Assembly (NCBI GenBank): GCA_964243185.1
Contig: CAXTFX010000001.1
Span: 1-35,233, forward strand
DNA: 35,233 bases
Direction: 5' to 3'
Origin: an uncultured Chthoniobacterales bacterium
GTDB taxonomy: Bacteria; Verrucomicrobiota; Verrucomicrobiia; Chthoniobacterales; SZAS-18
The translations under genes were made by a program, and so were the position numbers. The notes beneath the pieces were generated by a model, which was not told the origin of the DNA, did no database searches, and saw only the letters and a program-made list of their open reading frames with translations. Positions 1 to 35,233 of this stretch are shown piece by piece (the first letter of the stretch is position 1; the number at the start of each line of letters is the position of its first letter).

Positions 1-440
1 ACCGCGATCGGCTCCGGGTAGCGGTCGGCCTCGCGGGCTGCGTCGCTCAAAGCCTGGAGCACCGCCCTTTGCTGGTCCCTCGGCGCGGCCCGTAAAAGCT
101 TCTCCCCGGCCTCGGCTGGGGAAACAAGTCCTAACCGGACCTCTTCCAGCAACCTTACTCTGCGTCTGTCCTCCGGGGTTTTCTCGGCGGCGAGGAGGCG
201 AACATACTGGCCCTCCGCCGCCCAAGCGAGTCGCGCCTTAACGGCGCTCCGGTGGGCATCCTCAAAGCCGGGTAAAAGCCTTGACCATTGTAGTTCCGGG
301 GCAACCTCCGCCGGGATTACCAGGGGCTTCCGAGACAACCATTCCTTTGCGCGCACCACCCCCTGCCGCCCGACCGCGGTGTCCAAGGGCGAGATGCGCG
401 CCTTGCGGGAACGGTTCGGAAGAAGTTTGCCCCTGCCCAT
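1..440 (-). CDS. hypothetical protein, partial (runs off the left edge; C-terminus missing)
   Basis: The minus-strand frame has no stop from 521 down to position 1. It is absent from the ORF track because it leaves the window. ATG candidates lie at 440 and 461. The translation MGRGKLLPNRSRKARISPLDTAVGRQGVVRAKEWL...FEDAHRSAVKARLAWAAEGQYVRLLAAEKTPEDRRRVRLLEEV looks protein-like, but no family was recognised. Confidence 0.35.
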   Translation of the reverse strand, partial: MGRGKLLPNRSRKARISPLDTAVGRQGVVRAKEWLSRKPLVIPAEVAPELQWSRLLPGFEDAHRSAVKARLAWAAEGQYVRLLAAEKTPEDRRRVRLLEEVRLGLVSPAEAGEKLLRAAPRDQQRAVLQALSDAAREADRYPEPIA

Positions 441-616
441 GCTGCCAGCATACCGCGCCATCCCGCGCCACGCTATCCCTCTGCCGCGCCTGTGCGCGTT
501 GTGTGCGCGATACGAACGGGGTTAGCCGCGGAAATGAGTGGGACGGCGCGGAACAGCTAAAAAGATAACTCCCGCATAAGCTGCTTACCCGCAGCATTTA
601 CGAGGTAAAAAGCGGG

Positions 617-689
617 CACTCCCACCGAGAATCGAACTCGGAATATTCGGTTTAGAAGACCGATGCTTTATCCGTTAAGCTATGGGAGC
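617..689 (-). tRNA. tRNA-Arg (anticodon TCT)
   Basis: The reverse complement folds as a 73-nt cloverleaf: acceptor GCTCCCA/TGGGAGT, D stem GCTT/AAGC, anticodon stem TCGGT/ACCGA with loop CTTCTAA (anticodon TCT), T arm CCGAG-TTCGATT-CTCGG. No CCA is encoded. Confidence 0.9.
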
Positions 690-793
690 AAGCGGGGGGC
701 AGACACCGCTGCCTCCGGCGAGCGTGCCTCCCGCACCCGTTCCTGTCAACCGGACCTGACAGCGTGAGCGCTGCGGTCGGGCGCCGGGCGGTC

Positions 794-1204
794 CTACTTC
801 CAGCGCCACTCGGGTTGCAGGTTGATCTGCTCGTCGCCGAGGTCCACGCCGGCGCAGCGCAACAGGTAGAGGACGCCCTCGCGGCTATCCATCGTCTCGC
901 GCAGGCTGCGGGCGAAGAGCTCGATGTATTCCTTGTAGGAGTCCAACGAGAGCTTGCCGTCCGCCACGTAGGCGGCCAGGGCGGCGTCGTGGTGGTCGAT
1001 CAACTCGAACAGGCCCCGGCGCAGGTCGGCGCGCATGGCCGGGTCCACGACCAGGCGGAAGGGGCTGGCGCCGGCGCGCAGGTGACGGGCCGGTGAGGAG
1101 ACGACCGCGGGGGAGGGGCGCGCGACGAGCGCGGCCTCGGCGGGCGTCGGGTTGGCGGCGGCGGCGACGACTTGGTTGATGGTCGGAACGGTTTCGGTTT
1201 CCAT
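794..1204 (-). CDS. hypothetical protein (about 136 aa)
   Basis: This is the C-terminal part of track ORF 794..1465. The internal ATG at 1204 (METETVPTINQ...) avoids overlap with the divergent gene. The well-behaved C-terminal half reads LFELIDHHDAALAAYVADGKLSLDSYKEYIELFARSLRETMDSREGVLYLL. No family was recognised. Confidence 0.55.
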   Translation of the reverse strand: METETVPTINQVVAAAANPTPAEAALVARPSPAVVSSPARHLRAGASPFRLVVDPAMRADLRRGLFELIDHHDAALAAYVADGKLSLDSYKEYIELFARSLRETMDSREGVLYLLRCAGVDLGDEQINLQPEWRWK

Positions 1205-1337
1205 GGGTGGTGTTGGGCAGTTGAACGAACCAGCGGTTCCGGGGGGTCGCGGGCTCGGTCCTAACATCGGGCTCCGGGCACGTCCAACCATTTTTTGGGG
1301 CTTCCGCGCGGCGCGTCCCGATGTTAGTCTGCACGCC

Positions 1338-2159
1338 GTGAACGCCCCGGTTCCCTGCCGCCGAGTCTTGATTATCCCGTTAGTCGCGTTGTGCTTAGCG
1401 TTGCTCCTGTCCGGCGGGCTGGGAGGTTGCGGGGGGAGGAAGGCCAACGAGCTCGTGGTGGGCATGGAGCTGTCCTACCAACCCTTTGAAATGCTGGACG
1501 AGCGGGGGCAGCCGGCGGGCATCGGCGTGGACCTGGCCCGGGAGCTGGCGGCCAGCCTGCACAAGGAAATCCGCATCGAGAACATGGATTTCGGCGCCCT
1601 GATCACCGCGCTGAAAACCGGGCGCATTGACCTCGTCGTCTCCTCGATGACGGTGAACGACGAGCGAAAAAAATCCATTGACTTCTCCATTCCTTACATT
1701 TCCAACGGCTTGGCCATCCTGGCTAACGCCAAGTCGGACATCCGCAACATCGGGGACGTGGACCGCGCCGGGCGCACCGTCCTGGCCAAGAACGCCACGA
1801 CGGGCTACGCCTACGCGCAGGCGCACTTCCGGCAGGCCAACGTCCGGGTGCTGGGTGAGGCGGCGAACTGTGCGTTGGAAGTCAGCCAGGGTAAGGCGGA
1901 TGCGTTCCTCTACGACCAGATTGCGATCTACCGGTTGAACCGTAAGTTCCCGGACACGACCCGTGCCTTGCTGGAACCGTTCCAGCAGGAAAGCTGGGCC
2001 ATCGGCATCCAGAAGGGGCGCGATGAACTGCGTAACGGGGTCAACGCGTTCCTGGCGGACTTCAAGGCGCGCGGCGGGATGGACCGGCTCCTGCAAAAAT
2101 ACCTCGGCGCGGACCCCGCCACGCTGAAGGAGATGGGCGTTTCGGCGGGCGGCAACTGA
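1338..2159 (+). CDS. amino-acid ABC transporter substrate-binding lipoprotein (family 3 SBP), orphan
   Basis: Track ORF 1152..2159. The SBP_bac_3-like core reads ELVVGMELSYQPFEMLDERGQPAGIGVDLARELA...GRIDLVVSSMTVNDERKKSIDFSIPY...WAIGIQKGRDELRNGVNAFLADFKARG. The signal peptide has lipobox LSGGLGGC. The start is uncertain (GTG 1338 or TTG 1368). No permease or ATPase gene is adjacent. Confidence 0.85.
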   Translation: MNAPVPCRRVLIIPLVALCLALLLSGGLGGCGGRKANELVVGMELSYQPFEMLDERGQPAGIGVDLARELAASLHKEIRIENMDFGALITALKTGRIDLVVSSMTVNDERKKSIDFSIPYISNGLAILANAKSDIRNIGDVDRAGRTVLAKNATTGYAYAQAHFRQANVRVLGEAANCALEVSQGKADAFLYDQIAIYRLNRKFPDTTRALLEPFQQESWAIGIQKGRDELRNGVNAFLADFKARGGMDRLLQKYLGADPATLKEMGVSAGGN

Positions 2160-2178
2160 CTGAACCTCCGCCCTGGCG

Positions 2179-2982
2179 ATGCCGTTTTCCCCTGACCCGA
2201 ACCCCGCCGCCGGCGTCGGCGACCCGACGGGCCGTTTTTCCCATCGCGTGGACGATTACGTCCGCTACCGGCCGGGCTACCCGGAGGCCGTGCGGGACGC
2301 TTTGCGGGCGTGGGGGCTGTTGCCGGTGGACGCGGTGGTCCTCGACGTGGGCGCGGGGACGGGGCTTTCCAGCGAACCGTTCCTGCGCGCCGGCCACCGG
2401 GTGCTCGGCGTGGAGCCCAACGCCGGGATGCGCGGGGCGGCCGAGCGGGGACTGGGGGCGCGTTATCCCGAACGGTTTCAGGTCGTGGACGGCCGGGCGG
2501 AGGCCGTTCCGCTGCCGGGGGCGTCGGTGGACCTCGTCGTGGCGGGGCAGGCCTTCCACTGGTTCGAGCCGGAGCGGGCGCGGGCGGAGTTCGTCCGGCT
2601 CCTGCGGCCGGGGGGCGCCGCGGCCCTGTTCTGGAACGAACGGCGTCTGGGCGGCACGCCGTTCCTCGTGGGTTACGAACGATTGCTGCGGACGTTCGGG
2701 ACGGATTACGCGGCCGTGAGCGACCGCTACCCGACGCCCGCGAAGATCGCGGCGTTCTTCCGGACGCCTGGTTTCCTCACCGCGGAGTTCCCGACCGGGC
2801 AGAGCTTCGACTTCGAGAGCCTGCGCGGCCGGCTGCTGTCCTCCTCCTACGCGCCCACCGCGGAGTCGCCCGCCTACGGGCCGATGACGGCGGAGTTGCG
2901 GGCGCTCTTCGACCGTTGCCAGGAGAACGGCACGGTGCGGTTTGAATACCGCACCGTGGTGTATGCCGCCCGGTTGGCCTGA
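2179..2982 (+). CDS. class I SAM-dependent methyltransferase
   Basis: Motif I is VLDVGAGTGLSS. The post-I/II region reads HRVLGVEPNAGM...VDLVVAGQAFHWFEPERARAEFVRLLRPGG, a Methyltransf_11-type layout. Confidence 0.85.
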   Translation: MPFSPDPNPAAGVGDPTGRFSHRVDDYVRYRPGYPEAVRDALRAWGLLPVDAVVLDVGAGTGLSSEPFLRAGHRVLGVEPNAGMRGAAERGLGARYPERFQVVDGRAEAVPLPGASVDLVVAGQAFHWFEPERARAEFVRLLRPGGAAALFWNERRLGGTPFLVGYERLLRTFGTDYAAVSDRYPTPAKIAAFFRTPGFLTAEFPTGQSFDFESLRGRLLSSSYAPTAESPAYGPMTAELRALFDRCQENGTVRFEYRTVVYAARLA

Positions 2983-3017
2983 TGCCCGGCCCGGTGGCCG
3001 CCGCCGCCGCCTCCGCA

Positions 3018-3527
3018 TCAGCCGCCGACGTAGGTGGCGTTGTAGGAGGCGAACTTCACCGTCGAGTCCCGCGGAGGCGTGTCCTTGCAATCATAGACGG
3101 TGTTGTTGACGACCTTCCCGCGCTCGGTGTCATAGACCATGCAGGAGGCCTGGCCCTTGCTCTCCCGGCTGCGCTCGGTCCGCACGGCGATGTAGCGGCT
3201 GCGGCGGCGCACGGCAGCCTTCTTCTCGGCGCTCAGGCGCGCGTAGGCCCGCCGGGCGTTGGCCTCGGCGACGGCCTTCTGCCGCTCGGAGGCCTGGTGC
3301 TCGGCGACGGCGTAGGTGATGCCCGCGGCCAGCAGGCCGACGCCCGCGCCGAGCGCCGCGGCCTGGCCGGTGTTCAACCCGGCGGCGGAGCCGATGAGGC
3401 CGGCGGCGACCCCGGAAACGGCGCCGACGGTGGCGGCGCTCTCCCCGGAGGTCATGCCCTCGCACCCGCTCAGGAGCAGGCAGGCGGCGGTGGCGGTGGA
3501 GGTGAGGCGGATGGCAAAGGGTTTCAT
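3018..3527 (-). CDS. lipoprotein with glycine-zipper segment, unknown function
   Basis: The internal ATG at 3527 gives MKPFAIRLTSTATAACLLLSGC (lipobox LLSGC). It is followed by the Gly/Ala zipper GAVSGVAAGLIGSAAGLNTGQAAALGAGVGLLAAG and a charged C-terminal domain. Confidence 0.7.
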   Translation of the reverse strand: MKPFAIRLTSTATAACLLLSGCEGMTSGESAATVGAVSGVAAGLIGSAAGLNTGQAAALGAGVGLLAAGITYAVAEHQASERQKAVAEANARRAYARLSAEKKAAVRRRSRYIAVRTERSRESKGQASCMVYDTERGKVVNNTVYDCKDTPPRDSTVKFASYNATYVGG

Positions 3528-27758: not shown

Positions 27759-28112
27759 TCATCCCGAATTCGGAGCACCCGTTCGCTCTCGGGGGGGTGC
27801 CCCCCGCGCTTGCTTCTGCGGGTCTTGTCGGCCTTGATGGCGCACCGTGGCCAGGTAGCGCGCGCGCAGATCTGCCAAGCTGGGCAGGTCGCCCGCAGGT
27901 CGCATCCCGCCGAGTTCGGCCTGCGACCCGGCCAGCCGACGCTTGGCCAAGGGGCGGTCGGTGGTGCGTAGGCTGCGGCGCAGCTCCTTGCCCGCCTCCT
28001 CCAACCGGGCATAGTAGATGCCGTTGGACGAATATCCGTAGGGACGCTCCCCGACCTGCTCGAACCTTCCCGCCGACGCGGCAGGGGAACGGGGACGGGT
28101 GGGTGAGTTCAT
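27759..28112 (-). pseudogene. tyrosine recombinase (phage-type integrase) N-terminal fragment
   Basis: NGIYYARLEEAGKELRRSLRTTDRPLAKRRLAGSQAEL...LADLRARYLATV matches the N-terminal arm and SAM-like region of tRNA-associated integrases. The catalytic domain is missing. It lies 80 nt from tRNA-Val. Confidence 0.6.
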
Positions 28113-28192
28113 TGCCGGTAGTTCGTCCCGAGCCGGACAAAACAATTTCGGCGATGAAACGTCTTCCGTAAACATAACAACGGGAATGGCAA

Positions 28193-28267
28193 GGGCGGTT
28201 AGCTCAGCGGTAGAGCGGCTCGTTTACACCGAGTTGGCCGGGGGTTCGAATCCCTCACCGCCCACCA
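28193..28267 (+). tRNA. tRNA-Val (anticodon TAC), CCA encoded
   Basis: The cloverleaf reads GGGCGGT-TA-GCTC-AGCGGTA-GAGC-G-GCTCG-TTTACAC-CGAGT-TGGCC-GGGGG-TTCGAAT-CCCTC-ACCGCCC-A-CCA. All four arms pair, and the anticodon is TAC. Confidence 0.9.
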
Positions 28268-28327
28268 CCTAAACCGCGGCCCCCGCGCGCGACTGCGGCC
28301 TTGAAACGGGGTTTAACCTTTTCCAAC

Positions 28328-29023
28328 ATGACCCACAAAATATCGCTCTTCCTAGCCGCGGGCGCGGCGCTGCTGCTCGCCCCGTTGTCCTCTTCCCACG
28401 CGCAACGTTACGGCGGCGGCGGCAGCCGGCTGGGGGCCTTCGCGGGCGGCGGTGGAGCCCGGTCCGGGGCCGTCAACAGCGCCGCCGGGGCCCGCGGCTA
28501 CAACGGGGCGTCGTTCCGCAACAACCGTAACTTCTACCGGGGCGGTTACGGCGGCTACTACGGTGGCCGTTCCCGCTACTTCTACCGGGGGTCCTACTAC
28601 TACTATGACCCGTTCTTCTTCGGCGGGTTCGGCTACCCTTACTACTACGGCGGTTACGGGCCGGGCTTCGGCGTGGGCTACTACGGCTACGGGGGCTACG
28701 GTTACGGCGACGGCCCCTACGGGGACCGCGTTTACAGCGGGCGCATCGCTTCCGAGGTGAACGGCGGCCGCCGGGGCGGCGGCGACGACGATGAGGACGG
28801 TGACGAGCGGGGCGGCCGCGGGGGACGCTACTCGCCGAACTCAATGGCCCGCGCCGTCCAAAGCGAGCTGAAGGAGCGCGGCTACTACCGGGGTTCCGTG
28901 GACGGGCAGTTCGGCGCCGGCACGGCCAGCGCCCTCCGCAGCTTCCAGCGGGAAAAGGGGCTGAAGGTCACGGGCCGGCTCGACGAGCGCACGCTCAAGG
29001 CGCTCGGCTTCGACCAACGTTAA
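28328..29023 (+). CDS. secreted Gly/Tyr/Arg-rich low-complexity protein with C-terminal peptidoglycan-binding (PG_binding_1-like) domain
   Basis: The signal is MTHKISLFLAAGAALLLAPLSSSHAQ. About 110 aa follow of GGYGGYYGGRSRYFYRGSYYYYDPFFFGGFGYPYYYGGYGPGFGVGYYGYGGYGYG, then an acidic patch. The C-terminus is AVQSELKERGYYRGSVDGQFGAGTASALRSFQREKGLKVTGRLDERTLKAL. Confidence 0.85.
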   Translation: MTHKISLFLAAGAALLLAPLSSSHAQRYGGGGSRLGAFAGGGGARSGAVNSAAGARGYNGASFRNNRNFYRGGYGGYYGGRSRYFYRGSYYYYDPFFFGGFGYPYYYGGYGPGFGVGYYGYGGYGYGDGPYGDRVYSGRIASEVNGGRRGGGDDDEDGDERGGRGGRYSPNSMARAVQSELKERGYYRGSVDGQFGAGTASALRSFQREKGLKVTGRLDERTLKALGFDQR

Positions 29024-31152
29024 ATGGCGGCCGGGCCGCCGCCCCCCGGTGCGGGCAGGCGCAGGTCGTAGGTCAATAGCTCGGGGCTGGACCGCTGGCA
29101 GGAGTTGCCGGGGTCCGGCCCCCGTTCGGGCGACGGGACCCGCTGGAACTGCCGCTGGTTTTCCTCCAGCCGGTAGGCGTCTTGGACCGGGTGGTCCGGG
29201 GTCGGGGAGGTGATGAGCACCTCCAGCGGCAGGTGCGGCGGGATGCCGGGGTGCAGGGACGGGTAGAGGGCCGTGCGCCGGTAGCGCAGGCCGGCCCCGA
29301 CGACATTCACGCTCAACGGGTTGTTCAGCGACAGCTCGCGGCCGTGGACCCAGACGCGGTGCGCCCGCGCCCACCCCGGCGCGGCGGCGAATTCCAGGCG
29401 CTCGATGGACGTGTCCACGAAGCGGCTCGTGCTCCCGCCCTCGCTCGGCGTCTCCGAGAGCAGCGGCCAACCCTCGCAGGCGCGGCGCACGGTGAGGCCG
29501 TCCGTTCGCAGCAAAGCCGGGAAGCGCCACTCCCACAGCGGGCGGAAGGCCGCCTCCTCGAACGCGAACCCCGCGGCGCGCAGGTCGTGGAGGACGCGGC
29601 GGAAGTCTTCCCACAGCGGCGTGGGCAGGAAGTAGGCGTCGTGCAGCCGCAGGCCGTGGCGCGCCAGCGGCGGCAAGGGCTGGCCGGAGCGTTCCAGGGT
29701 CAGCGCGGCCAGCCCGTGCCAGAGCAGGGCGACGAGGGCCATCCAGTCCGCGCGCGGCAGGCTCTCGATGGCGCGGAACTCGATCAGCCCCGCCGCGGCC
29801 CCGACCGGGCCGGAGAGGTTCCAGAATTTATCGAACGACGTCTCGGAGAGGTGCCCGTTGCCGGAAACGTCCACGTGCAGGTGGCGCAGGGTTTCGCCGA
29901 TCTGGTAGGCGTGATTCTCGCCGGCGGGCAGGCCGGCGAGGTGGCGGTAGCCCATCTCGAGGTCGTAGAGGTCGCGGGCGGATTCGTCCGGCCGCGGGGC
30001 CTGCGAGGAGGCGCCGACGTATTGGCCGGTGAAGGCGTAGGCCAAGCAGGGGTGGGCTTGGAAATAGGCCAGCAGCGTTGCCAGCCACGCCGGGCGGGTG
30101 AAGAAAGGGTTTTCCTCGAGGGACGGCCCGCCGAACAGGAGGTGGTTGCCGCCGCCGGTGCCGAGTTCGGCGCCGTCGGGCAGCCGTTTCCACGAGCGCA
30201 GGCCGACGGCGGCCCCGGCCGTTTCCAGGTCGGACAACCAGCGGGCGTATTCGGACCAATTTTCGCAGGGCGGCAGGTTGACCTCCAGCACGCCGGGGTC
30301 GGCGGTCAGCCCGAGGCGCCGCCACGCGCCGGAGTCGCTGGCGGGCACGTAGCCGTCGAGGCGGACGGCGTGGATGCCGGCGTCCTCCAACTCTTCGTAA
30401 ATGGCGGCGAGCAGCTCCCGCCAGGGGGCTTGCAGCAGCGGCGGCAGGAAGACGCGCAGGGCGCCGTCCCCGGGGTCGGTTTCCACCGTCAACGCCCGGC
30501 GCAGGGCGTCGGGCGGCAGCGTCCCCAGCGGCAGCCGCAGCCCCGCCCCCCCGGCGGCGTTGACCAGGGGCAGGAAGCGGGCGCGGCCCGCGGTTCTCAG
30601 CAGCCCGCGCCACGCGCCGGCCGCGTCCGTGAACCAGCGTTCGCCGTCGTGGTCCAGCGGCAGGGCGTGGGCGGTGGCGGCGGCGTGGCGGCGGCCGGTC
30701 GGGGAAACCTCGTCCCGCGCGGGCAGCCAGGCGTCCGCGGGCAGACCGAGGCGGGCGGCGAGGCGGCGGCGGAAGGCGGGCAGGGATTTTAGGTTTTGGA
30801 CTTTGGACTTTGGACTTTCCTCCTCCGCGGGGATGGCCGGCGGGTGGGGGGCGAGCGGGGGGCCGCCGTCCGGGTTCCAGAGGAGGTTGAGCACCCAGCG
30901 CGGGTTTGTCTCGCCGGGGTAACGTTTGCCGGGGGAAAGGACCGCCGCGGCCCCGGGGGTGATGCCCCGGCCGATGAGCGTCCCCGCCAGGCGGTAGGCG
31001 TGTCGCAGCTTGGTGGGGCCGACGGCCGCCACGAGCCACTCGGCGCCCTGCGGGTCGTCGGGGACCAGCGTGGGCTCGCCGCCGAGGGTCAGGCGCACGC
31101 CCGCGGCGGCGAGGCGGGCTTCAATGGCGGCGGCGACTTCGGGGGCGTTCAT
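29020..31152 (-). CDS. DUF2126 (putative amidoligase) domain protein, stand-alone
   Basis: The ATG at 31152 gives MNAPEVAAAIEARL. Motifs recalled from DUF2126 are LGTGGGNHLLFGGPSLEENPFFTRPAWLATLLAYFQAHPCLAYAFTGQYVGASSQAPRPDESARDLYDLEMGY and IEFRAIE. No transglutaminase domain is fused. Confidence 0.8.
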   Translation of the reverse strand: MNAPEVAAAIEARLAAAGVRLTLGGEPTLVPDDPQGAEWLVAAVGPTKLRHAYRLAGTLIGRGITPGAAAVLSPGKRYPGETNPRWVLNLLWNPDGGPPLAPHPPAIPAEEESPKSKVQNLKSLPAFRRRLAARLGLPADAWLPARDEVSPTGRRHAAATAHALPLDHDGERWFTDAAGAWRGLLRTAGRARFLPLVNAAGGAGLRLPLGTLPPDALRRALTVETDPGDGALRVFLPPLLQAPWRELLAAIYEELEDAGIHAVRLDGYVPASDSGAWRRLGLTADPGVLEVNLPPCENWSEYARWLSDLETAGAAVGLRSWKRLPDGAELGTGGGNHLLFGGPSLEENPFFTRPAWLATLLAYFQAHPCLAYAFTGQYVGASSQAPRPDESARDLYDLEMGYRHLAGLPAGENHAYQIGETLRHLHVDVSGNGHLSETSFDKFWNLSGPVGAAAGLIEFRAIESLPRADWMALVALLWHGLAALTLERSGQPLPPLARHGLRLHDAYFLPTPLWEDFRRVLHDLRAAGFAFEEAAFRPLWEWRFPALLRTDGLTVRRACEGWPLLSETPSEGGSTSRFVDTSIERLEFAAAPGWARAHRVWVHGRELSLNNPLSVNVVGAGLRYRRTALYPSLHPGIPPHLPLEVLITSPTPDHPVQDAYRLEENQRQFQRVPSPERGPDPGNSCQRSSPELLTYDLRLPAPGGGGPAAI
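30798..30818. repeat. tandem heptamer tract (GGACTTT)x3 inside the DUF2126 CDS
   Basis: Three exact copies lie at 30798-30818, flanked by degenerate copies from 30787. On the coding strand the tract is translated in frame as EESPKSKVQNLKS. Confidence 0.85.
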
Positions 31153-31955
31153 CAGGCGGGTTCGACGCGGTGGATGGAAGCGGCGCGCACCGTGTCGAAA
31201 AGGTGCTGGCGGTTGCCTTTGACGTTCGCCGGCCGACCGTCCGCGCGCGGGCCGGGGCGCAGGACGGCCAAGGCGAAACCGCCCCACATCTGGCCGGCCA
31301 CGGGGCCGTCGCCGGGGAAGACGCCCGGCGTGTAGTCGAGCTGCACGCGGCGGACGTGCGGGCTGGCGTCCCAATCGGCCCCGGCGATGCCCCGGCGGCA
31401 CTCGGGGTTAAACGAATCGTGCATCAGGACGAACAAGGGCTGGGTGCGCGGCTGGTAGCCGGCGAGGAGGTCCTCGATGTCCCGGCGCACGGCCCCGGCG
31501 GAGTGGTCGCCGTCAATGAGCACGAAATCAATCTCCTCGCCCTCCGCGTTCAGCCGGGCGAGCAGCGCGGGCAGGGTTTCGCGCGAGGGGCCGGCGAGGA
31601 ACTCGACGTTCGGGAAACGTTGACCCAGGGCCGCCTCCCGGTCGGGGCGGATGTCGAGGGTGAACACCCGCCCGGTGGTGTGCCGGGCGATGGCCGAGAG
31701 GCTGCCCCCGTCGGCCGTGCCGATCTCAATGGACACGCGCGGCTTCAGGCTGCCGACGACGTGCAGGAGCATGACCCGTTCAACGATGTCCATCTGCCAG
31801 CCCGTGGTGATCAGACCGGCGAAGACCTCGCTGTCGAAGGAGGCGGTGCCGGGGGCGGGACCGGCTTCGCCAAAATGACGAAGGACGAAGGACGAAGGAC
31901 GAAGGGGATCTGCGGGCGGTTGTTCGCTGCCGCCGTTGGCTGGGAGCTCGCTCAT
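31152..31955 (-). CDS. class I SAM-dependent methyltransferase (Methyltransf_24/CmcI-like)
   Basis: The core reads VSIEIGTADGGSLSAIARHTTGRVFTLDIRPD...FVLIDGDHSAGAVRRDIEDLL. The stop overlaps the DUF2126 start (TGATG at 31150-31154). The start is uncertain (31955 or 31988), and the N-terminal 30 codons run through a heptamer repeat. Confidence 0.75.
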   Translation of the reverse strand: MSELPANGGSEQPPADPLRPSSFVLRHFGEAGPAPGTASFDSEVFAGLITTGWQMDIVERVMLLHVVGSLKPRVSIEIGTADGGSLSAIARHTTGRVFTLDIRPDREAALGQRFPNVEFLAGPSRETLPALLARLNAEGEEIDFVLIDGDHSAGAVRRDIEDLLAGYQPRTQPLFVLMHDSFNPECRRGIAGADWDASPHVRRVQLDYTPGVFPGDGPVAGQMWGGFALAVLRPGPRADGRPANVKGNRQHLFDTVRAASIHRVEPA

Positions 31956-31996
31956 GGTCCCGGTGGTCCTTTTCTCGTCATTCGTCATTCGTCACT
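31877..31996. repeat. imperfect inverted repeat built from GACGAAG / CGTCATT heptamer tracts
   Basis: (GACGAAG)x4 lies at 31877-31904. CGTCATT CGTCATT CGTCACT lies at 31976-31996. The arms are complementary at 6 of 7 positions per unit and are separated by about 70 nt containing the ATG at 31955. The right arm contains the TGase-2 stop (31992-31994). Confidence 0.8.
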
Positions 31997-32879
31997 CCGC
32001 CCGCGGGGCGGCGTCCAGCGGGAACAGATCGACGCTGGCCGTCATCTCGCTCGCCACCTTTTCAGAGCCGTAGTAGGCGCCGCCGATGGGCGTGATGTCC
32101 GCCGGCGTCAGGCCCACAGCCGTGGCGAGGTGGCGTTCGTCGCAGAAGATGCCGTTGGTCGGGTCCAGCCCGAGCCAGCCGGCGCCGGGGAGGAACACCT
32201 CGACCCAGGCGTGCATGGCGCCCTCGGCCCGCCGTTCGCTCGTGGCCACGCCGGCCTCGAACAGGTAGCCGCTGACCAGCCGGGAGGCGAGGCCCAGGCC
32301 GTCGCGCAGGACGGCGGCCTGGAGCACGGCGAAGTCCCGGCAGGCGCCGATGCCCCCCGCCAGGGTCTCCGCCGGGGGGCGCGCCCGGCCGGTGTCCCGG
32401 CGCTCGTATTGGAGGTGTTCCCGAAAGGCCTTGGTCAGTTCCACGAGCATCGGCACGGTGCCGCCGCCGTCCGCCGGGCGTTCCCAGAAGGGCAGGGGAG
32501 CGGCGTGCCGCGCCGAGACCTCCGGCGGGGCGAGATAGACGGCGAGCCGGGCGCGGTCCTCCAACTCGTAGTCGAAGGGGAAGTTCACGGCGTAGTTCTC
32601 CAGCAGGAAATCGAACGGGTTGCGCTCGGTCAGCTCCACCTCGGCCGTGAAGTCGAAGCGCAGGTCGGCCGTCGGTTCGGAGGCGTAGTTGCAGCGGGCA
32701 ACGAGGTTGTCGAACAGGTCGCGCCGGTGGCGGACGGCGGCGCCGGGGTTGGTGACGAGCTCGGCGCGGTGGGCGATGCGCCCAGGTTCGGGTCGGGGGA
32801 AGAGCCGGACGTGGTGGGGGCCGAAGCCGACGGGGCGTTCGTAACGGTAGAGGGTGCGGTGTTCGATGCGGAGGCGCAT
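31992..32879 (-). CDS. transglutaminase-like cysteine peptidase family protein (Bact_transglu_N + Transglut_core)
   Basis: MRLRIEHRTLYRYERPV is the canonical N-terminal domain start. The catalytic Cys is in GACRDFAVLQAAVLR, and the His/Asp are in HAWVEVFLPGAGWLGLDPTNG. An alternative start lies at 32918. Confidence 0.85.
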   Translation of the reverse strand: MRLRIEHRTLYRYERPVGFGPHHVRLFPRPEPGRIAHRAELVTNPGAAVRHRRDLFDNLVARCNYASEPTADLRFDFTAEVELTERNPFDFLLENYAVNFPFDYELEDRARLAVYLAPPEVSARHAAPLPFWERPADGGGTVPMLVELTKAFREHLQYERRDTGRARPPAETLAGGIGACRDFAVLQAAVLRDGLGLASRLVSGYLFEAGVATSERRAEGAMHAWVEVFLPGAGWLGLDPTNGIFCDERHLATAVGLTPADITPIGGAYYGSEKVASEMTASVDLFPLDAAPRAE

Positions 32880-32998
32880 AGGGACCGCGCCGTCCACCAC
32901 GAAGGGAGTTTTGTCCATCGCATTCCGCGTCCGGGCGCTACCCGGGGTTGACAACCGCGGTCCCTCGCTTACATCCCGCGCACCGGTCACCGGTGTTC

Positions 32999-34036
32999 AT
33001 GGAAACCCCTACGCCAGTCTCCGCCCTCCGTCCCGTCTTGGTCCACGACAAAGGCTGCCTCAACGTCTCCACGGTCGCCGCCGAGCTGCGGAGCCTGTGC
33101 CGGCCCCGGCCGCTGCGCGCGTGGCTCGGCGTGGCGGGGGACTGGGCGGTGATCGCCGCGGCCATCATCCTGGCGCGGCTGGTTCCCGGGGTCTGGCACT
33201 GGCCGGCCGTCGTGGTCGCCCTAGCCGTCATCGGCGGCCGGCAGCACGCGCTGCTGGTCCTGATGCACGACGCCGCCCACGGTCGGTTCCTGCGCTCCCG
33301 GCGGTGGAACGATCTGCTGTCGAACGCGCTGTTGGCGTGGCCCGGCTTCGTTTCCACGGAGTCCTACCGCGAGAACCACCTGCTCCACCACCAGCACGTC
33401 AACACGGAGGACGACCCCGACCACCGGCGCAAGGCGGGGCGCGAGGAGTGGGAGTTCCCGAAAACGATGGCGGAGGTGCTCGCCGTCTTCGCCCGCGCCT
33501 TTTTGCTGGGCGAGGCCATCGAGATCGCCCGGATGCTCATCCGCATGGCCTGCGGTAAAGCCCCCGGGCAGGGCGCCAAGGCGGCGGCCCGTTCCCCGTG
33601 GCCGCGGTTGGCGTATTACCTGGGTTGGGCAGGGTTCCTGACGCTGGTCGGGGGCTGGGGCACCTTCGGCTTGTATTGGCTGCTGCCGTTGGTGACGTTC
33701 GCGGCCATGTATGCGCGCATCCGCTCGGTTTGCGAGCACTTCGGGGTGGAGCGCGAGCACGACCTCAACCACACGCGCAACTACCGGGCGTCCTTCCTGG
33801 AGCGGGCCACGGTGGCGCCCCACGGCATCCACTACCACCTCACGCACCACCTGTTCCCGGCCATCCCGTTCTACGCGCTGCCGGAGGCCGACCGGCTGTT
33901 GATGACCGTTCCCCAATACCGCGACGGGGCGCACCTCAACGCGGAGGTGTTCTCCGCCGACGACCGCAGCGTCCTCTGCGACCTGCTGCGCGGCGGTCCG
34001 GCGGGGGACAAACGGCGGTTGGTGCCGGTGGCGTGA
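32999..34036 (+). CDS. membrane fatty-acid desaturase family protein
   Basis: Three histidine boxes are present: HDAAHG, HLLHHQH and HYHLTHH. Flanking hydrophobic segments are also present. The gene is divergent from TGase-2 across 120 nt. Confidence 0.85.
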   Translation: METPTPVSALRPVLVHDKGCLNVSTVAAELRSLCRPRPLRAWLGVAGDWAVIAAAIILARLVPGVWHWPAVVVALAVIGGRQHALLVLMHDAAHGRFLRSRRWNDLLSNALLAWPGFVSTESYRENHLLHHQHVNTEDDPDHRRKAGREEWEFPKTMAEVLAVFARAFLLGEAIEIARMLIRMACGKAPGQGAKAAARSPWPRLAYYLGWAGFLTLVGGWGTFGLYWLLPLVTFAAMYARIRSVCEHFGVEREHDLNHTRNYRASFLERATVAPHGIHYHLTHHLFPAIPFYALPEADRLLMTVPQYRDGAHLNAEVFSADDRSVLCDLLRGGPAGDKRRLVPVA

Positions 34037-34068
34037 CCGGGGGGTTTAAACGCCACCGTTGTCAACGC

Positions 34069-34992
34069 TCATGCGGAGGACCGCGCCGAAGACGCTTTCC
34101 GCCGCATGAACACCTTGACCTTCATCCGTTGGCGGCCGGCGCCCTTGAATGTCCCCCGCACGGGCGTGGCGTCGCGGAAATCCCGGCCGCGGCTCACGGC
34201 GACGTGGCGCTCGCCGCACCACTGGTCGTTGGTCGGGTCCAGCGCCACCCAGGTCAGGCCGGGGACGAGCACCTCCACCCAGGCGTGCGTGGCGATGGCC
34301 CCGACCAGGGTCGTGCGCGGGGCGCCGCGGGCGGGCAGGTCGGCGTCCGCGTTGGCCTCCGGCGGGGCCACGGCCTCGATGTAGCCGCAGACGTAGCGCG
34401 CCGGCAGGCCGGCCGTGCGGAGGACCGAGATCATGACGTGGGCAAAGTCCTGGCAGACGCCGCGTTTCGTCTTCCAGATCTCGTGCAGCGGGGTGGAATT
34501 ATTGGTCGCACCGCTGGCGTATTGGAACTGGGAATACACCGCCCGGTTGAGCGCGAAGAGGGCCGATCCGAGCGGCTCGCGGCCGGGCAGGTAGCGCTTG
34601 GCCCACTGGATGGCTTCCCGCCCGGTGAGGACGACCTCCGTGGGCTGGACATAGTCGAACACGTCCGCCAGCGGCGCGCCGGTGAGGAGTTGGCGGGCCT
34701 CGTTGACGGAGATTTCCAGGGCCTCGGCCGGCCGGGGGACGGGTCGGGTGCGGATGTCCACGCGGCTGGTGATGGTGAGGGACTTGTGCCGGTAGGGCAG
34801 GGTGAAGAACTCGACGGCGTTGCCGAAGAAATCCGTGTAGCCGCTGGTGCGGGTGGCCGGGGAGATTTCCAGGCGTCGGCGTAGGACAGTCTGCCCCGGC
34901 TCGTCCGGCGGGGCGAGGCGGGTTTCGAGATACGCCTCCGCCGCGGCGTTGGCATAGGTGTAGTCGGTGACGTGGGTGATCTCGAAGTCCAT
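34069..34992 (-). CDS. transglutaminase-like cysteine peptidase family protein (Bact_transglu_N + Transglut_core)
   Basis: MDFEITHVTDYTYANAA is the start. The catalytic Cys is in GVCQDFAHVMISVLRTAGLPARYVCGY, and the His/Asp are in HAWVEVLVPGLTWVALDPTN. An alternative GTG start lies at 35013. Confidence 0.85.
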   Translation of the reverse strand: MDFEITHVTDYTYANAAAEAYLETRLAPPDEPGQTVLRRRLEISPATRTSGYTDFFGNAVEFFTLPYRHKSLTITSRVDIRTRPVPRPAEALEISVNEARQLLTGAPLADVFDYVQPTEVVLTGREAIQWAKRYLPGREPLGSALFALNRAVYSQFQYASGATNNSTPLHEIWKTKRGVCQDFAHVMISVLRTAGLPARYVCGYIEAVAPPEANADADLPARGAPRTTLVGAIATHAWVEVLVPGLTWVALDPTNDQWCGERHVAVSRGRDFRDATPVRGTFKGAGRQRMKVKVFMRRKASSARSSA

Positions 34993-35017
34993 GCGGAGAG
35001 GAAGCACGGTCACGGGG

Positions 35018-35233
35018 TTAGCTGCCCGCGTTGGCGGGTAGGTCCGTTTCCCGGATCAGTTGGCTGACACTTTCGTGGTCAAACAGGTGGGGCACCCCTT
35101 TGGGGCTGATGTAAACCGCCGTGCCGCCCCCGACGGCGACCGCCTCCAGGTGATGCACTTCGAAGCGGTCGCCGCTGACCAGTTCCACCGTGAACGGCTT
35201 CGCGTCGGAGAGTGTCCATTCGTGCAGGTAGAT
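35018..35233 (-). CDS. hypothetical protein, partial (N-terminus beyond right edge)
   Basis: The open frame from the window edge to the TAA at 35018-35020 reads IYLHEWTLSDAKPFTVELVSGDRFEVHHLEAVAVGGGTAVYISPKGVPHLFDHESVSQLIRETDLPANAGS. It ends 4-25 nt before the transglutaminase gene. No family was recognised. Confidence 0.5.
   Translation of the reverse strand: MYLHEWTLSDAKPFTVELVSGDRFEVHHLEAVAVGGGTAVYISPKGVPHLFDHESVSQLIRETDLPANAGS

Follow-up and report, generated by a model that had tools for sequence, protein, structure and literature searches.

A predicted peptide-ligase system built from circularly permuted (CP) ATP-grasp, Alpha-E and transglutaminase-like proteins, with or without DUF2126 or the Anbu peptidase, has been described (Iyer et al. 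2009, via PMC5666114) and summarized as a putative, non-essential peptide-synthesis module (PMC5666114). An earlier note on the DNA studied here regarded the function of this system as still unknown, in agreement with our literature search, in which no mention of DUF2126 was found in the searchable library and no experiments on the amide-ligase activity or its product came up.

Fused Bact_transglu_N-Transglut_core-DUF2126 proteins of 1105-1234 aa occur in other Verrucomicrobiota, and Rv2566 of M. tuberculosis is presumably of the same fused type. In the cultured species Chthoniobacter flavus Ellin428 (GCA_000173075.1 ABVL01000024; L005, L006), two transglutaminase-like genes (TG1 and TG2) and a stand-alone DUF2126 gene, encoding a protein of 670 aa that is 53% identical to the one described here, lie on one strand at a locus annotated 'transglutaminase-like protein'. 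The same three genes are found in the present window, which is a complete contig of 35,233 bp with its end lying 220 bp upstream of TG1; unlike the window, the C. flavus locus lacks a methyltransferase, a desaturase and a small ORF, and has Peptidase_M1 directly upstream instead of an ATP-grasp/Alpha-E fusion.

The locus is a new member of this known, functionally uncharacterized and widespread bacterial operon. Our main reading, to which we assign a probability of about 80%, is that it comprises the downstream two thirds of a normal operon of CP-ATP-grasp/Alpha-E fusion, TG1, TG2 and stand-alone DUF2126, conserved throughout this order of Verrucomicrobiota, and that the methyltransferase and desaturase are incidental insertions. 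As in the system of Iyer et al. (2009, via PMC5666114), the locus has members of all four component families, which become co-linear when a second contig (C365) is joined, the transglutaminase triads are intact, and ATP-grasp and Alpha-E are fused, as in many members. The locus differs from that system in that DUF2126 is separate rather than C-terminal to a transglutaminase fusion, and in carrying three unrelated inserted genes; there is no Anbu peptidase gene in the operon.

The conserved DUF2126 and transglutaminase-like genes

The five gene calls (DUF2126, methyltransferase, TG2, desaturase-family and TG1) proved correct and their coordinates hold. A tblastn search with the window proteins revealed the arrangement fusion-TG1-TG2-DUF2126, with order and strand kept, in 14 of 23 related loci, and a contig-cut or incomplete version of the operon in three more; across the related loci, orthologues of TG1 are 51-76% and those of TG2 42-63% identical to the window proteins.

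The last gene of the operon (positions 29020-31152, minus strand) encodes a stand-alone DUF2126 protein of 710 aa that matches PF09899 with 403 bits (cut-off 27; E 3.7e-120), so that both the domain call of the earlier note and its description of a separate polypeptide stand. The match covers two separate segments of the profile (positions 33-176 and 328-755 of 826), the profile's middle part (176-328) being largely absent in this clade. Compared with the fused proteins, the window protein shares the DUF2126 core, and the neighboring ATP-grasp/Alpha-E and transglutaminase genes are also common to both (L037); here, however, TG2 and DUF2126 are separate genes, and the window DUF2126 has ~85 fewer residues around profile positions 176-328, with a score of ~400 bits against ~1300 bits. 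Its start coincides with the start of the DUF2126 part in the fused proteins, which keep 68 of the 95 clade-invariant positions, among them almost every invariant Glu, Arg, His, Asp and Lys residue.

The earlier note had treated the stand-alone protein as a rearranged oddity and the split layout as unusual, neither of which was borne out. Of 24 genomes of the same family, 23 have a single DUF2126 gene, each in the stand-alone form (~700 aa), and in an evenly sampled set from the phylum this form accounts for seven of 20 DUF2126-positive genomes, the remaining 13 having fused frames. Stand-alone homologues (660-730 aa) number more than 120, >120 database clusters are 50-86% identical to the stand-alone protein, and the layout is already in public records, including those of the cultured C. 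flavus.

TG1 (34069-35013, minus strand; 314 aa), the second gene of the operon, and TG2 (31992-32990, minus strand) both contain Bact_transglu_N (PF08379) and Transglut_core (PF01841). The motifs GVCQDF/THAWVEV/LDPTN in TG1 and GACRDF/MHAWVEV/LDPTN in TG2 retain the catalytic residues, confirming two stand-alone transglutaminase-like proteins with intact Cys-His-Asp triads, as noted previously. In relatives, orthologues of TG1 directly follow the ATP-grasp/Alpha-E fusion, while those of TG2 adjoin DUF2126 directly upstream. TG2 probably starts at M38, near 32879, giving ~295 aa; this and the start revisions proposed below are based on the alignment starts of homologues and a drop in GC3. TG2 is closest to the transglutaminase part of a 1192-aa fused frame (G030) and is orthologous to the N-terminal module found in the fused transglutaminase-DUF2126 proteins, a fission-fusion relation that supports the idea that TG2 and DUF2126 act as one unit.

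The DUF2126 protein is a predicted glutamine-synthetase/GCS-like carboxylate-amine ligase. A search of PDB sequences with it gave no match; an AF2 model (pLDDT 81.8) returned glutamine synthetases (5dm3, 4hpp, 8x6z, 9qur) and the YbdK-type structure 1tt4 as the top Foldseek matches in the PDB, all non-significant (best E 0.23, TM 0.15-0.37). From family knowledge, the system is expected to be cytoplasmic and to make and cut amide bonds. The circularly permuted ATP-grasp, with Alpha-E as its partner domain, would activate a carboxylate with ATP and join it to the amine of a peptide or small molecule, DUF2126 would serve as a second ligase of the glutamine-synthetase/GCS type, and the papain-fold proteins TG1 and TG2 may trim or transfer the product, TG2 presumably working jointly with DUF2126, since other lineages have them joined in a single polypeptide.

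The ATP-grasp/Alpha-E fusion and the contig end

The earlier note had found neither ATP-grasp nor Alpha-E; this is correct for the window, but the partner is not missing from the assembly, its absence from the window probably being due to the assembly break at the right end. Extension to the right, as had been proposed, led to C365 of the same assembly, which carries S9, L13 (minus strand), a gene for an 888-918-aa CP-ATP-grasp/Alpha-E fusion and the start of a small gene. The fusion protein matches CP_ATPgrasp_2 (PF14403) with 316 bits and CP_ATPgrasp_1 (PF04174) with 252 bits, and has Alpha-E (PF04168; 165-168 bits) at its C-terminus. The last 52 nt of C365 are 94% identical to the right end of the window, with 17 identical residues in common, and the unbroken orthologous contigs of L058 and L057 have the fusion gene upstream of TG1; on these two grounds we infer that the fusion gene adjoins the window's right end.

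An unbroken 71-kb contig of a close relative has the same gene order. In the unbroken contig L058 the order is S9, L13 (minus)/fusion/87-aa ORF/TG1/desaturase (minus)/TG2/methyltransferase/methyltransferase/DUF2126/PG_binding (minus); L057 has the fusion gene immediately next to TG1. The small gene (~79 aa) is split by the contig end, its 3' part lying at 35018-35233 (minus strand) and its 5' part probably at the end of C365, after the fusion gene. It has no Pfam match, but 351 representative homologues are present in a library of 1.84 billion proteins; the 87-aa ORF of L058 is a homologue at the same position, and the gene is absent from L057 and all other related loci compared.

Inserted genes and alternative explanations

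Relative to the conserved operon, three unrelated genes have been inserted at gene junctions in the genus-level lineage: the ~80-aa ORF between the fusion gene and TG1, an antisense FA_desaturase-family gene between TG1 and TG2, and a Methyltransf_24 methyltransferase between TG2 and DUF2126. With the antisense gene in place, the old operon probably yields two transcripts, fusion-small gene-TG1 and TG2-methyltransferase-DUF2126.

The methyltransferase (31152-31988, minus strand; longest ORF 278 aa) is a class I SAM enzyme of the Methyltransf_24/CmcI-like type (PF13578, 42.3 bits against 26.3), and its start probably lies 35-55 codons inside the longest ORF. It shares the class I SAM-methyltransferase fold with the CmcI/rhamnosyl O-methyltransferase family (PF04989), for which it gives a borderline RMNT_CmcI match exactly at the cut-off (23.2 bits). 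Assignment as a rhamnosyl O-methyltransferase orthologue was rejected (NCBIfam, 21 bits against a cut-off of 400).

The desaturase-family gene (32948-34036, plus strand) encodes a membrane di-iron enzyme (PF00487, 136 bits, E 2.3e-39) with the His boxes HDAAH(107), HLLHH(144) and HLTHH(297). Its start is probably M18, near 32999; with this start and M38 of TG2, the apparent overlap of the two genes is really a divergent spacer of ~119 bp. Its family, His boxes and divergent strand are as described earlier, whereas the label of lipid desaturase is uncertain: the best curated match, nearly full length, is to the guanitoxin L-arginine gamma-hydroxylase GntB (NCBIfam NF041365, 151 bits, E 3.9e-44), likewise a three-His-box membrane di-iron enzyme, and lipid desaturases match with only 23-24 bits. 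The GntB score lies far below the 380-bit equivalog cut-off, and there are no guanitoxin genes nearby.

Both genes were previously taken to hint at a modified product, and it is conceivable, though unlikely, that the methyltransferase, possibly with the di-iron enzyme, was recruited in this genus and methylates (or hydroxylates) the ligase product or a substrate amino acid to give a lineage-specific modified peptide or small molecule. We consider slightly less likely still that two tailoring enzymes, a DUF2126-coupled SAM methyltransferase and a GntB-like membrane di-iron hydroxylase, were recruited to yield a methylated or hydroxylated amide-linked product. Recruitment would fit the co-directional methyltransferase, whose TGA (31154-31152) overlaps the DUF2126 ATG (31152-31150) as TGATG, the overlap previously reported at 31150-31154; an ATGA-type overlap in L003; the tandem duplication of the methyltransferase in L058; the action of GntB on a free amino acid; and the retention of both genes in all four genus-level contigs (the window, L003, L057 and L058) with dN/dS of 0.13-0.33. 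However, the DUF2126 proteins of L003, L057 and L058 are 82-87% identical, and at such shallow divergence (dS ~0.4) synteny is little informative. Beyond these genus-level relatives the two genes are not kept with DUF2126: 40 relatives contain no linked methyltransferase orthologue, the single homologue (54%) having DUF2126 on a different contig, and no desaturase orthologue (identity ≤34%). Distant methyltransferase homologues sit in unrelated neighborhoods, as do the 63% and 52% desaturase homologues, two of only four above 50% identity in a large protein database. Moreover, the desaturase lies on the opposite strand, and the methyltransferase shows the weakest constraint among these genes (dN/dS 0.31-0.33). 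Finally, sister genera have unrelated inserts at the same junctions, PTS_EIIA and a CLC channel between TG2 and DUF2126 and DUF2147 between TG1 and TG2, for which reason the inserts are most likely passengers, not parts of the pathway.

Improbable by a wider margin is the proposal that the locus is an incomplete or rearranged remnant working without ATP-grasp/Alpha-E, C365 not being adjacent and its fusion belonging to a separate system. The overlap of the contig ends is only 94% identical, C365 and the window diverge over the window's outermost 33 nt, a second, separate CP_ATPgrasp and Alpha-E pair is located on C301, and in C. flavus TG1-TG2-DUF2126 are not immediately preceded by the fusion gene; yet the fusion proteins encoded upstream of TG1 in L058 and L057 are 87-90% identical to that of C365, the S9/L13 left flank of C365 recurs in L004 and L058, and the fusion gene and DUF2126 each occur just once in the genome. 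The imperfect overlap may reflect a mixture of strains or a duplicate of the small gene. The least probable explanation is a decaying, pseudogenized operon: three insertions do interrupt the ancestral operon, but all five frames are open with catalytic residues intact, and dN/dS across the genes against two relatives indicates purifying selection, which largely refutes decay.

If recruitment were true, the locus would give a first clue to the chemistry of the system's product, because tailoring enzymes constrain substrate chemistry. Under the preferred reading of incidental insertion, it matters little beyond correct annotation. As recent insertions found in the closest relatives only, the methyltransferase and desaturase say little about operon function, and because stand-alone DUF2126 is common and present in public records, including those of a cultured species, the locus opens no new route to the function of the system. 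The operon junctions repeatedly accept unrelated inserts, so neighbors should not be regarded as pathway members without deep synteny support.

A heptamer-array inverted repeat, (TGACGAA)x3 ... (CCTTCGT)x4, lies at 31877-31996 (minus strand), in the stretch that separates the stop codon of TG2 from the conserved core of the methyltransferase. It occurs once within the window and is predicted to form a long-range RNA hairpin (MFE -55.7 kcal/mol, z -2.9), with none of 200 shuffled sequences as stable.

Gene content of the region and selection on it

Region 29020-35013 is a member of a known, functionally uncharacterised system; the locus has received three most likely incidental gene insertions, and its first gene is probably hidden by an assembly break. 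The window is the complete 35,233-bp contig C1 of an assembly of 697 contigs (4.77 Mb, roughly 70% GC), and the region holds five open frames. The minus strand encodes two transglutaminase-like genes, TG1 (34069-35013) and TG2 (31992-32990), each matching Bact_transglu_N and Transglut_core and retaining Cys, His and Asp, followed by a methyltransferase gene (31152-31988; Methyltransf_24, 42.3 bits) and a DUF2126 gene (29020-31152), whose 710-aa product matches PF09899 (E 3.7e-120) over profile positions 33-176 and 328-755 of 826. The TGA of the methyltransferase gene and the ATG of DUF2126 overlap as TGATG, and a desaturase-family gene (32948-34036; FA_desaturase, E 2.3e-39), whose product has three His boxes, lies on the plus strand between TG1 and TG2. 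The earlier note described the sequence correctly and its observation is confirmed; its interpretation, a split and rearranged cluster whose methyltransferase and desaturase hint at a modified small molecule or lipid-linked product, is only partly supported.

Alignments to homologues, together with falling GC3, suggest that the true starts of three genes lie inside the longest ORFs, 37 codons in for TG2, 17 for the desaturase-family gene and about 35-55 for the methyltransferase. All five genes are under purifying selection (dN/dS 0.13-0.33), and a pseudogenised remnant is rejected on this ground. Downstream, a PG_binding_1 gene (28301-29023, plus strand) converges on DUF2126, the two stop codons overlapping at 29020-29023. 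The same convergent neighbour is present in L003 and L058, two contigs of genus-level relatives, and in the further loci L021, L025 and L033; the adjacency is therefore older than the genus.

A conserved operon and the probable contig join

Comparison of the window's proteins with 23 loci of relatives by tblastn revealed the order CP_ATPgrasp/Alpha-E fusion gene, TG1, TG2, DUF2126 in 14 of them, on a single strand and with the genes mostly abutting; orthologues in related loci are 51-76% identical for TG1 and 42-63% for TG2. TG2 and DUF2126 are a fission/fusion pair, because in one relative genome a TG2-like module and DUF2126 form a single 1192-aa frame.

Absence of an ATP-grasp or Alpha-E gene, as read from the window earlier, is most likely due to an assembly break. 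Both domains are encoded in the same genome on contig C365, which probably abuts the window's right end and where a 918-aa frame matches CP_ATPgrasp_2 (316 bits), CP_ATPgrasp_1 (252 bits) and Alpha-E (165 bits). The order on C365 is S9 (minus strand), L13 (minus strand), the fusion gene and a small gene that the contig end cuts off after 36 codons. An exact end-to-end overlap between C365 and C1 was not found, the match of the last 52 nt of C365 to the window's right end being 94%; in translation, 17 residues of the overlap (KPFTVELVSGDRFEVHH) are the same as in the partial ORF at 35018-35233. In L058, a 70.9-kb contig of a close relative (DUF2126 87% identical), the whole arrangement is unbroken in the order S9 (minus), L13 (minus), fusion, 87-aa ORF, TG1, desaturase (minus), TG2, two methyltransferase genes, DUF2126 and PG_binding (minus), and in L057, from another genus-level relative, the fusion gene directly abuts TG1. 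On these sequence comparisons, the joining of C365 to the window's right end is well supported, but it is unproven base by base, as the 33 nt at the window's very end (35201-35233, reading IYLHEWTLSDA) mismatch the C365 part (SVRQLARRVPF). Differences between strains or an artefact at the contig end likely account for the mismatch, which is probably why the assembly breaks here.

From family knowledge, the ATP-grasp domain would use ATP to ligate a carboxylate and an amine, DUF2126 would act as a second carboxylate-amine ligase, and the transglutaminase-like Cys-His-Asp proteins may hydrolyse or transfer the amide-linked product. These ligase and transglutaminase role assignments are those of Iyer et al. 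2009 as summarised in PMC5666114, a source that also describes a related Anbu-type operon as non-essential in other bacteria. In the literature library searched, no paper names DUF2126, and no experimental work on this domain was found. At the start of contig C301 of the same assembly (2-3350), a second set is present with separate CP_ATPgrasp (508-aa frame) and Alpha-E (354-aa frame) genes, the transglutaminase partner of which, if any, lies past the contig break.

Stand-alone DUF2126 proteins

The split layout had been regarded as unusual. Stand-alone DUF2126 is instead a large, ordinary clade, and its architecture is standard for the bacterial family: among 40 relatives searched, the stand-alone form is found in 23 of the 24 same-family genomes, 19 with one full-length match and four in pieces. 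Among 5.8 billion proteins, more than 120 cluster representatives were retrieved with 50-86% identity, each 640-780 aa long and with PF09899 as the only domain; those with names are annotated 'transglutaminase family protein' or 'DUF2126 family' and belong to Verrucomicrobia, Chthoniobacteraceae and Chthoniobacter flavus Ellin428, the last of which has the stand-alone layout free of inserts. Across an even sample of the phylum, DUF2126 occurs in 20 of 151 genomes, as fused frames in 13 (1105-1234 aa, full profile, about 1200-1340 bits) and as stand-alone frames in seven (686-795 aa, profile in pieces, 320-490 bits). The start of the stand-alone protein coincides with that of the DUF2126 part in fused proteins, and 68 of 95 clade-invariant positions are common to both forms, among them almost every invariant Glu, Arg, His, Asp and Lys; judged from these residues, the two forms would be expected to share the same chemistry.

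AF2 models DUF2126 confidently (pLDDT 81.8, pTM 0.84). Foldseek against the PDB gave no significant match (E at least 0.23), and neither the protein itself nor a profile of 34 sequences found a meaningful sequence match there. The top folds, all non-significant, were glutamine synthetases and a YbdK-type ligase, a weak agreement with the proposed ligase fold. A GGACTTT heptamer tract (30787-30820) encodes residues 111-122, of which residues 111-120 form a low-confidence segment of the model (mean pLDDT 59).

Inserted genes and the repeat array

Only the window and three contigs of the genus-level clade, L003, L057 and L058 (DUF2126 82-87% identical, dS about 0.4), have the methyltransferase and the desaturase-family gene within the operon. 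In the 40 relatives, no desaturase orthologue was found (best identity 34%), and the single methyltransferase homologue (54%) lies on a contig other than that genome's DUF2126. The desaturase subfamily is rare (only four homologues exceed 50% identity); those at 63% and 52% (L053, L055) sit in unrelated surroundings, where an aldo-keto reductase gene is found no more than about 3 kb away in both cases. Homologues of the methyltransferase, 55-56% identical, adjoin a glycosyltransferase or lie among unrelated genes. Sister genera carry other inserts at the same junctions, namely PTS_EIIA_2 and a CLC chloride channel between TG2 and DUF2126 (L004, L022, L023, L031, L038) and a secreted DUF2147 protein between TG1 and TG2 (L021, L033); the operon junctions take up unrelated genes repeatedly.

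The functional link of both genes with DUF2126 proposed in the earlier note thus fails the synteny comparison, with no conservation beyond the genus-level clade, and the two genes are lineage-specific, most likely incidental insertions. A link of the methyltransferase, or the desaturase, to the operon retains a small residual probability, since the methyltransferase gene runs in the direction of DUF2126, whose start it overlaps, shows purifying selection, at dN/dS 0.31-0.33 the least stringent in the set of five, and is tandemly duplicated in L058 (10001-11562, Methyltransf_24 copies of 242 and 237 aa). In L057 it is present as two fragments. As for a lipid desaturase, the family match and His boxes stand, but the lipid role is doubtful: among curated models the L-arginine gamma-hydroxylase GntB scores highest (151 bits, cut-off 380), versus 40 bits for CrtR and 23-24 bits for the lipid desaturases DesA and DesB. 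The protein is predicted to be a membrane di-iron oxygenase, not demonstrably a lipid enzyme.

The small gene between the fusion gene and TG1 comprises window positions 35018-35233 and the end of C365 (4886-4994), with a counterpart at L058:6692-6955. Its 79-87-aa product has no Pfam match and holds this position in its own genome and L058 only; absence from L057 and all 20-odd other related loci rules it out as the ligase system's precursor peptide. The family has 351 representatives in a 1.84-billion-protein library, mostly of 70-110 aa; some, at 150-250 aa, contain the module twice or three times in tandem.

The antisense desaturase gene probably splits the old operon, and the divergent spacer at 32880-32998, roughly 119 bp long, may drive TG2-MT-DUF2126, MT being the methyltransferase gene. 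Scans of 28000-35233, uninformative at 70% GC, found no sigma-70 promoters; the only terminator-like site lies within the desaturase gene, and shuffled sequences yield more. The stretch from the TG2 stop to the conserved core of the methyltransferase contains inverted heptamer arrays, (TGACGAA)x3 and (CCTTCGT)x4, at 31877-31996, so that the methyltransferase start is uncertain. The arrays, which occur once in the window, fold into a long-range hairpin with a stem of about 25 bp and a 70-nt loop (-55.7 kcal/mol, z -2.9), which could serve in regulation or be the scar of an insertion.
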